This document shows, piece by piece, positions 56,930 to 58,067 of a stretch of 64,000 nucleotides of DNA. Where the stretch lies: the NCBI RefSeq assembly GCF_029227855.1, contig NZ_CP074356.1; one strand, written 5' to 3'. The notes beneath the pieces were generated by a model. That model did no database searches and was not told the origin of the DNA. It saw only the letters and a program-made list of their open reading frames with translations. Origin of the DNA: Escherichia coli (lineage in GTDB: Bacteria; Pseudomonadota; Gammaproteobacteria; Enterobacterales; Enterobacteriaceae). A program made the translations under genes and the position numbers. How positions within the stretch are numbered: position 1 is the first letter of the stretch; the number at the start of each line of letters is the position of its first letter.

Positions 56930-58067
56930 CTCATCTGCCGCTCTACCGCATCCCTCGACCATAATCCCGACTCAATCAACGAACTACAAGCCATCGTCCT
57001 GAAGCCATGCCCACAAACCTCGACCTTCGTGTCATACCCCATTACGCGCAAAGCCTTGTTCACCGTATTCTCACTCATCGGCTTACGTGGATCGTGATCG
57101 CCCACAAAAATCAGCTCTCAATTTCCGCTCATGCTTTTGATCTTTTCCAAAATACTTAGGGCCTGCCGCGACAAAGGTACAAGGTGTGGTGTCCGCATCT
57201 TCGAGCCACGCTGAGAATGCTTGACTCCTTCCAGTTGCTCACGCTCACCTGGGATTGTCCACATAGCCGTTTCAAAATCTACTTCTGACCAGCGGGCAAA
57301 ATGCAGCTCGCTCGAACGGATGAAAACCAATAAAGTGAGTTCAACCGCCAGCCGAGTTAACGGTCTGCCAGAATAGTGATCTATGCGATGAAGTAATTCA
57401 GGTATACGGTTCAGTTCAAGAGCTGCACGGTGCTGTCTTTTCGCCGTAGCAACCGCACCTGCAATCTCTTGCGCGGGGTTGTAGTCGATTAAGCCGCTCT
57501 GAACGGCAAAGCGCATAATCGCGGTAGTACGCTGCTGTAAACGGGCGGCAACTTCGAGCCGCCCGGATGACTCGACTGCTTTAATGGGTACAAGAAGATC
57601 CCGCGTCTTCAGTTCCGCAATGTTCCGCTTACCGATAGCAGTAAAGAGATTATCCTCCAGACTTTTCAAAACACGAGCGCTATGCGATGCCGACCACTTC
57701 TGATTGCTGGCGTGCCAGTCTCTGGCGACTACTTCAACGTTATCGCCTCTTGTTCCTGTTCTACCTTAACAGCTTTCTTGTTTTCACTGGGATCGACACC
57801 ATTAGCTAAAAGCTTACGAGCCTCATCCCGGCGTGCCCTGGCATCCGCCAACGACACTTCGGGGTATTTCCCCAATGCCAGCATCTTCTCTTTACCGCCA
57901 AAGCGATAACGTAGCCGCCAGTATTTGGAGCCGTTAGGGTGAACCAGCAAAACCATGCCTTCACCGTCGGTCAGCTTATAGGCTTTTGCTTCAGGCTTAG
58001 CCGAACGAACCTTCACATCACTCAGAGCCATGATGAGTATCCTTTCAAGGGTTCTGTGTGGGTACAA
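56930..58067 (-). pseudogene. intB: P4-type tyrosine integrase, frameshifted and 3'-truncated by IS629
   Basis: Three consecutive ORF fragments (N-terminal MALSDVKVRSAKPEAKAYKLTDGEGM…; middle; C-terminal …HGFRTMACSSL…) directly adjacent to the leuX 3' end. Confidence 0.7.

Follow-up and report, generated by a model that had tools for sequence, protein, structure and literature searches.

A leuX-adjacent P4-type integrase pseudogene ending at IS629 in an E24377A-like Escherichia coli chromosome

The sequence next to the tRNA gene leuX in the 64,000-nt stretch of DNA analysed here (the window) is very likely the decayed integration module of a genomic island inserted at leuX in an E24377A-like E. 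coli chromosome. According to BLAST, the window is an E. coli chromosome segment that is 99.9% identical to E24377A and carries a different set of insertion sequences (ISs). The preliminary description had claimed that a P4-type integrase lies beside leuX, is split over three open reading frames (ORFs) and runs into the end of IS629, and all three points held. The integrase remnant was found on the minus strand at 56930..58031, with leuX detected by both ARAGORN and Rfam (Table 1). The ORF list, tblastn and nucleotide alignment agreed on three minus-strand ORFs (57729..58067, 57118..57669, and 56890..57105), while alignment and an inverted-repeat search showed that IS629 stops at 56929 and integrase sequence begins at 56930. 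Nothing contradicts the pseudogene status of this gene, which is already on record in the RefSeq annotation of E24377A, where PGAP labels the identical locus 'tyrosine-type recombinase/integrase; frameshifted; internal stop; incomplete; missing C-terminus'.

Alignment to an intact leuX-island integrase, which had been suggested as a check, located three lesions exactly. The reference was the 421-aa integrase of E. coli GPEC79-13-647 (WP_096002195.1), which is intact, occupies the same spot beside leuX, and shares 90% nucleotide identity with the window copy. In a tblastn search of the window with this protein, residues 1-100 matched in one frame and residues 100-368 in another, with 95-96% identity, E = 0 and one in-frame stop, so the likeness to an integrase is no chance resemblance. 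The loss of a single T (TTT to TT) shifts the frame and, among the aligned copies of GPEC79-13-647, KFu019, and MS 21-1, is confined to the window lineage. ORFs 2 and 3 share one frame and are split by the TGA codon alone. At the IS629 right inverted repeat, codons 369-421 are missing, including His369 and the catalytic Tyr379; the missing 3' part measures 159 bp, and segment 3 ends one codon short of His369 and eleven short of Tyr379. The last 37 nt of ORF 3 lie inside the IS629 inverted repeat and contribute 12 IS-derived residues. The TTG at 58067, with which the first listed ORF opens, was rejected as the integrase start; as in all relatives, the gene natively opens with an ATG, here at 58031 (MALSDV...). 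This codon is 198 bp away from the leuX 3' end, and translation from it ends after about 101 residues owing to the 1-bp deletion. The integrase copies of KFu019 and MS 21-1 are 99.7% identical to the window copy in nucleotide alignment.

Table 1. Positions of the integrase remnant, the adjoining IS629 copy, and the leuX-island landmarks in the window.
Feature	Coordinates	Strand	Evidence and remarks
P4-type tyrosine integrase pseudogene	56930..58031	-	Codons 1-368 of ancestral 421; tblastn, alignment, Pfam, PGAP pseudogene in E24377A
Segment 1, codons 1-99 plus two out-of-frame codons	57732..58031	-	Whole Arm-DNA-binding domain; PF13356, ORF list
Out-of-frame stop of segment 1	57729..57731	-	ORF list
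Frameshift site, 1-bp deletion at codon 99/100	57736..57737	-	TT vs TTT in relatives; alignment with KFu019, GPEC79-13-647, MS 21-1
In-frame TGA for CGA, Arg305	57118..57120	-	Alignment; common to KFu019, MS 21-1, CREC_5
Segment 3, codons 306-368	56930..57117	-	Carries H342-x-x-R345 motif; alignments with lambda Int, P4 Int, GPEC79-13-647
IS629 copy, 3,580 bp (1,310-bp IS plus 2,270-bp group II intron)	53350..56929	+	Inverted-repeat search, PGAP label, alignment with CREC_5
IS629 right inverted repeat, equal to the integrase breakpoint	56905..56929	+	Sequence ending ..GGGGCGGTTCA
Group II intron, 2,270 bp, inside IS629 transposase gene	54136..56405	+	Insertion relative to CREC_5 copy; ends ambiguous within 9 bp
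Intron RT/maturase ORF, 507 aa, intact	54801..56324	+	Pfam RVT_1 and GIIM
Intron_gpII	56328..56414		Rfam
ALIL frameshift pseudoknot	53685..53801		Rfam, 120 bits
leuX, tRNA-Leu(CAA), intact	58230..58314	-	ARAGORN; Rfam tRNA 59.4 bits; tRNA-Leu in E24377A
Proximal att core, last 20 nt of leuX, equal to P4 attP core GAGTCCGGCCTTCGGCACCA	58230..58249	-	Compared with annotated core of NC_001609
Hairpin plus T run just downstream of leuX, terminator-like, island side	58199..58216	-	Terminator scan; identical in relatives
Distal att core, direct repeat, 19/20, one base deleted	11140..11158	-	k-mer and fuzzy searches, local alignment
AlpA-family ORF, 68 aa, looks intact	23104..23310	-	Pfam Phage_AlpA, E 1e-7, 32.2 bits vs cut-off 21

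The assignment to the P4 type is supported by several lines of evidence, and the P4 type proposed in the preliminary description was borne out by sequence identity, shared Pfam domains and a shared 20-bp core. After frame repair, the 368 translated residues show 56% identity to phage P4 Int (E 2e-153); for the intact GPEC79-13-647 integrase, the value is 58.6% across 97% of the protein. Pfam assigned Arm-DNA-bind_3 (PF13356, E 8e-31, model positions 1-82 of 83) to ORF 1, Phage_int_M (PF22022) and the first half of Phage_integrase (PF00589) to ORF 2, and PF00589 model positions 101-149 of 172 to ORF 3. The three-domain order of P4-type integrases is thus spread over three ORFs with the last domain incomplete, and the same three domains occur in the intact GPEC79-13-647 integrase and in P4 Int. 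The PF00589 match ends at position 149 of 172 in the window, versus 170 of 172 in the intact protein. A domain match to PRK09692 in NCBIfam fell below threshold (268 bits vs a cut-off of 434) and was uninformative. As in this integrase family, the gene also has a tRNA gene as its neighbour, and the 3' end of that tRNA gene is identical to the att core.

When the intact protein was aligned with lambda Int and P4 Int, its residues R239, H342, R345, and H369 fell opposite lambda R212, H308, R311, and H333. The nucleophile Tyr379 lies 10 residues past H369, inside a RAAYIH motif common with P4 Int; it was placed by this shared motif and by its spacing from H369, as MAFFT mis-gapped lambda Y342. 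A sequence search of the PDB returned structures for the arm-binding and central domains only and no catalytic-domain structure for active-site mapping. The catalytic set R...H-x-x-R...H...Y is incomplete in the window, since R239, H342, and R345 are kept and H369 and Y379 fall beyond the IS629 breakpoint, and the reading frame is interrupted by both the 1-bp deletion and the TGA. To judge from its sequence, the locus is a member of the P4-type integrase family by descent and not a functional one. Bypassing the frameshift and the stop would not restore a nucleophile, as none is encoded. Given the loss of His369 and Tyr379, the stop at codon 305 and the frameshift at codon 99, no self-encoded excision should be possible, and self-excision of the island is predicted to be excluded.

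The island itself has at either end a direct repeat that stems from the 3' end of the tRNA gene, with 20 of 20 positions in the proximal core and 19 of 20 in the distal one. Apart from the distal core, neither the window nor 116 kb of E24377A contained a further copy of the att core, and since the distal core is the only other copy, the island would span about 11159..58229, or ~47 kb. The island-side flank of the distal core (ATGTTT) resembles the flank of P4 attP. Between the repeats lie variable accessory cargo and mobility genes, with IS content differing between the window and E24377A. According to the E24377A annotation, the cargo comprises Ag43, the fec operon, shf-capU-virK-lpxM and many IS elements, and a CP4-like end module holds toxin-antitoxin, antirestriction, and RadC-like genes. 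The AlpA-family ORF is a candidate recombination directionality factor.

We also noted several features of the island and its surroundings. The shf-capU-virK-lpxM (msbB2) cluster at 42471..46347 and a complete fecIRABCDE operon at 32625..40170 are both chromosomal leuX-island cargo here; the former cluster is usually discussed as plasmid-borne in Shigella and EAEC. Beyond the distal core, the segment 11093..11138 resembles the leuX-proximal island arm at 58186..58229, with a shared AGGCACAAAAAAAG and a hairpin. It may be the original terminator of leuX; alternatively, a second element without an integrase may lie in tandem to the left of 11140 and have its arm here. Just outside the distal core is a gene for a site-specific DNA methyltransferase of 1,040 aa, intact in E24377A (WP_000049824.1), which is flanked by an SNF2-related gene and a DEAD/DEAH helicase gene. 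In the window, this methyltransferase (4720..7838, minus strand) is split into two ORFs by an A7-to-A6 contraction near 6483, which could be a mutation, a sequencing error in the homopolymer, or phase variation affecting a restriction/defence module.

The element abutting the integrase has the structure of an IS3-family member, with a length of ~1.3 kb once the intron is subtracted, inverted repeats (TGAACCGCCCCGGG), two ORFs and programmed -1 frameshifting. Without the intron, the copy is collinear with an uninterrupted 1,310-bp copy in CREC_5, and the name IS629 rests on the PGAP label 'IS3-like element IS629 family' together with this structure. Unlike a simple IS629 insertion, the copy has no flanking target-site duplication: its flanks are TAC on the left and CTC on the right, and on the left it adjoins a remnant of IS100 istB instead of integrase sequence. 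The absent duplication indicates rearrangement or deletion of at least one flank after insertion rather than a different element. A previous study described the group II intron E.c.I4, which homes into IS629/IS911 and is present in seven copies in E24377A (PMC3522654). The window intron is like E.c.I4 of E24377A in lying inside the transposase gene (PMC3522654). E24377A carries a second intron-bearing IS3-family copy in the island, which has no counterpart in the window. A second IS629 right end was found at 31131..31155, in the same orientation as the end at 56929, and two directly repeated IS629 ends inside the island could support an IS-mediated deletion of the kind that we infer to have removed the integrase end.

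We next consider how the lesions are distributed among 5,426 complete E. coli genomes, with exact 61-mers used for the stop and the deletion. At megablast sensitivity, 661 of the 5,426 genomes match the integrase sequence. The stop-codon 61-mer occurs exactly in 250 genomes and the frameshift 61-mer in 198, with 53 more carrying the same allele without the deletion; the exact IS629/integrase junction occurs in 197. About 53 of the 250 stop-bearing genomes thus lack the frameshift, and those examined also lack the junction. The presence of the lesions in 197-250 genomes shows that they are inherited in a widespread lineage and are not sequencing errors. Compared with the intact GPEC79-13-647 allele, the window allele differs at 95 synonymous and 9 nonsynonymous codons, which indicates purifying selection for most of the history of the gene and a decay that is recent relative to the divergence of the alleles.

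In KFu019, MS 21-1, and CREC_5, the integrase has the same stop and no frameshift, and it is 79 bp longer, reaching codon 393, where an IS911/IS600-like element of the IS3 family begins. In CREC_5, the uninterrupted IS629 sits inside this element in the window orientation, 403 bp from the window breakpoint. The IS911/IS600-like fragment is abutted by IS629 in CREC_5 (relative coordinates 4070/4071), and by an IS110-family element in KFu019 and IS30 in MS 21-1 (both about 2596..2600). The abutting points of all three lie 0-6 bp from the A6 programmed-frameshift site of the fragment, with IS629 and the IS110-family element breaking at the identical base. This coincidence of three ISs at one point could reflect an insertion hot spot or serial replacement.

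Based on four relatives rather than on a phylogeny, the following order of events can be proposed. The ancestral gene would have encoded a 421-aa P4-type tyrosine recombinase with arm-binding, central, and catalytic parts, which would have recombined two matching 20-bp cores, one identical to the 3' end of leuX and the other lying at the opposite island end. The CGA-to-TGA mutation and the cut at codon 393 by the IS911/IS600-like element may have come first; then, IS629 would have inserted into that element; next, ~403 bp directly adjoining the IS629 end would have been deleted, made up of the IS fragment and a further 25 codons of the integrase; the loss of the single T would have arisen in the same lineage; and homing of the group II intron into IS629 would have come last. 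IS629 thus marks the boundary of the remnant and was probably not the first inactivating event.

A simpler history would have IS629 jump straight into an intact, working integrase at codon 368 and inactivate it, with the frameshift and the stop arising later. The breakpoint does match the IS629 inverted repeat to the base, the junction is common to 197 genomes, and a direct insertion at codon 368 followed by a rearrangement on the left side would give the present structure. Against this, the stop is exact in 250 genomes, and the three stop-bearing relatives examined have no IS629/integrase junction, so that the stop appears older than the truncation; the TAC and CTC flanks form no duplication and the left flank is the IS100 istB remnant. 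In addition, neither tblastn nor blastn found the integrase 3' end elsewhere in the window, and a synthetic reciprocal junction (the integrase 3' remainder joined to the IS629 left end) had no match with at least 80% coverage anywhere in the 5,426 genomes. Because this reciprocal junction is absent, a simple insertion was rejected as the source of the present structure, and so was an inversion whose partner was kept. Taken together, the older stop, the missing duplication, the missing reciprocal junction and the cut at codon 393 in relatives argue that IS629 did not truncate a working gene, and direct inactivation by IS629 is considered unlikely; the structure fits an IS629-flush deletion of what would already have been a dead gene. 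That the frameshift or the stop (or both) might be a sequencing or assembly error, leaving the gene less damaged than it appears, is almost certainly wrong. The 1-bp deletion does fall in a short homopolymer (TTT to TT), but it recurs in 198 independently assembled complete genomes and the stop in 250, and the C-terminal loss alone takes the nucleophile away.

Two further readings concern residual function and mobility. ORF 1, of ~101 aa with the arm-type DNA-binding domain, might still be expressed and bound at arm sites near leuX, and it might then have a regulatory role or block incoming P4-type elements in a dominant-negative manner. Its Arm-DNA-bind_3 domain is complete and retains the native start, and the intact GPEC79-13-647 copy has almost the same upstream region. 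Just upstream of the integrase start, we observed two tandem GCGGGTA(C/T) motifs on the minus strand (58086..58093 and 58099..58106; together 58086..58106) and an inverted GTGTGGGTACAA at 58056..58067. Placed like the tandem arm repeats of P4 attP, the GCGGGTA(C/T) repeats are candidate arm-type sites of this integrase subfamily, which would suit such a role for ORF 1. However, the sequence upstream of the integrase start yielded no sigma-70-like promoter, the 53 same-allele genomes without the frameshift would not make the ORF 1 product, and there is no sign of selection, as copies at least 99.6% identical give no power to detect it. Residual function of ORF 1 is accordingly rated as very unlikely. 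The more specific proposal that ORF 1 has been domesticated in the 198 genomes as an 'integrase stump', a stand-alone arm-site binder at leuX with a role in exclusion, is extremely unlikely; if true, such a stump could hinder integration or excision by incoming P4-family satellites or islands.

The other reading is that the island is still mobilized in trans, in which case its own AlpA-family protein would act with a related integrase, encoded elsewhere in the genome or brought in by a P4-like element, to excise it at low frequency. Both att cores and the AlpA-family ORF persist, the proximal core has the same sequence as the core of P4 attP, and unidirectional cross-activity has reportedly been seen between P4-like integrases of different islands in strain 536. 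On the other side, the distal core has lost one base, and genomes hold only one or two copies of any sequence at least ~80% identical to the integrase gene. The candidate arm repeats differ from the P4 repeats GGGGGCA(T/C), which makes P4 Int an unlikely helper. When the P4 repeats were searched for in the island arms, a single match with two mismatches was obtained, and shared P4 arm specificity was rejected. Previous work on strain 536 showed that excision of its leuX island (PAI II536) is catalysed by its own P4-like integrase, which was described as highly specific (PMC3202238). Mobility in trans, although possible in principle, is less likely through the damaged distal core, and we regard it as improbable at this locus. 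As the distal core carries this 1-bp deletion, the island is probably a fixed part of the chromosome.

The decay of the leuX integrase, as reconstructed here, is ordinary, textbook island decay that is already annotated and shared by about 200 sequenced genomes, and it has little importance beyond bookkeeping. The leuX island of the E24377A-like lineage no longer has a working recombinase of its own and is most sensibly regarded as a fixed part of the chromosome, which is relevant for predicting which islands still move, in this case an island with Ag43, ferric citrate uptake, and virK-lpxM. The series of relatives provides a worked example of stepwise decay, from the stop, to the stop plus a cut by the IS911-like element, to the IS629-flush deletion plus frameshift. 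It also illustrates that an IS boundary is no proof that the IS was the inactivating event.

Among known systems, phage P4 (NC_001609, P4p04) is alike in having its integrase directly beside the core, reading away from the tRNA, and in using the same 20-bp core. It differs in that the window integrase is a pseudogene without His369 and Tyr379, its putative arm repeats are not those of P4, and P4 is an 11.6-kb satellite phage, whereas the window holds a 47-kb cargo island. In E. coli K-12, intB (b4271) of 'cryptic prophage PR-Y' is likewise a P4-type integrase pseudogene beside leuX followed by an IS (IS2K), and its conceptual translation is homologous along its length to that of the window remnant. 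Unlike the window copy, K-12 intB has lost its first ~26 codons and keeps the whole C-terminus including RAAYIH. The window copy shows the reverse, in that its N-terminus survives and its C-terminus is gone, and it has a frameshift and a stop in addition. PAI II536 of uropathogenic E. coli 536 shares the leuX target, a P4-like integrase, and direct repeats that stem from the 3' end of leuX (PMC3202238), but it is about 102 kb long, carries hly, pap, and hek, and is mobile, in contrast with the ~47-kb window island carrying fec, Ag43, virK-lpxM, and a dead integrase. The leuX islands of ED1a ('MsbB2, VirK, fec, Ag43'), CE10 ('Fec, VirK, MsbB2'), and S88 ('Fec, Ag43') have the same insertion site and the same cargo classes as the window island (PMC7545054).
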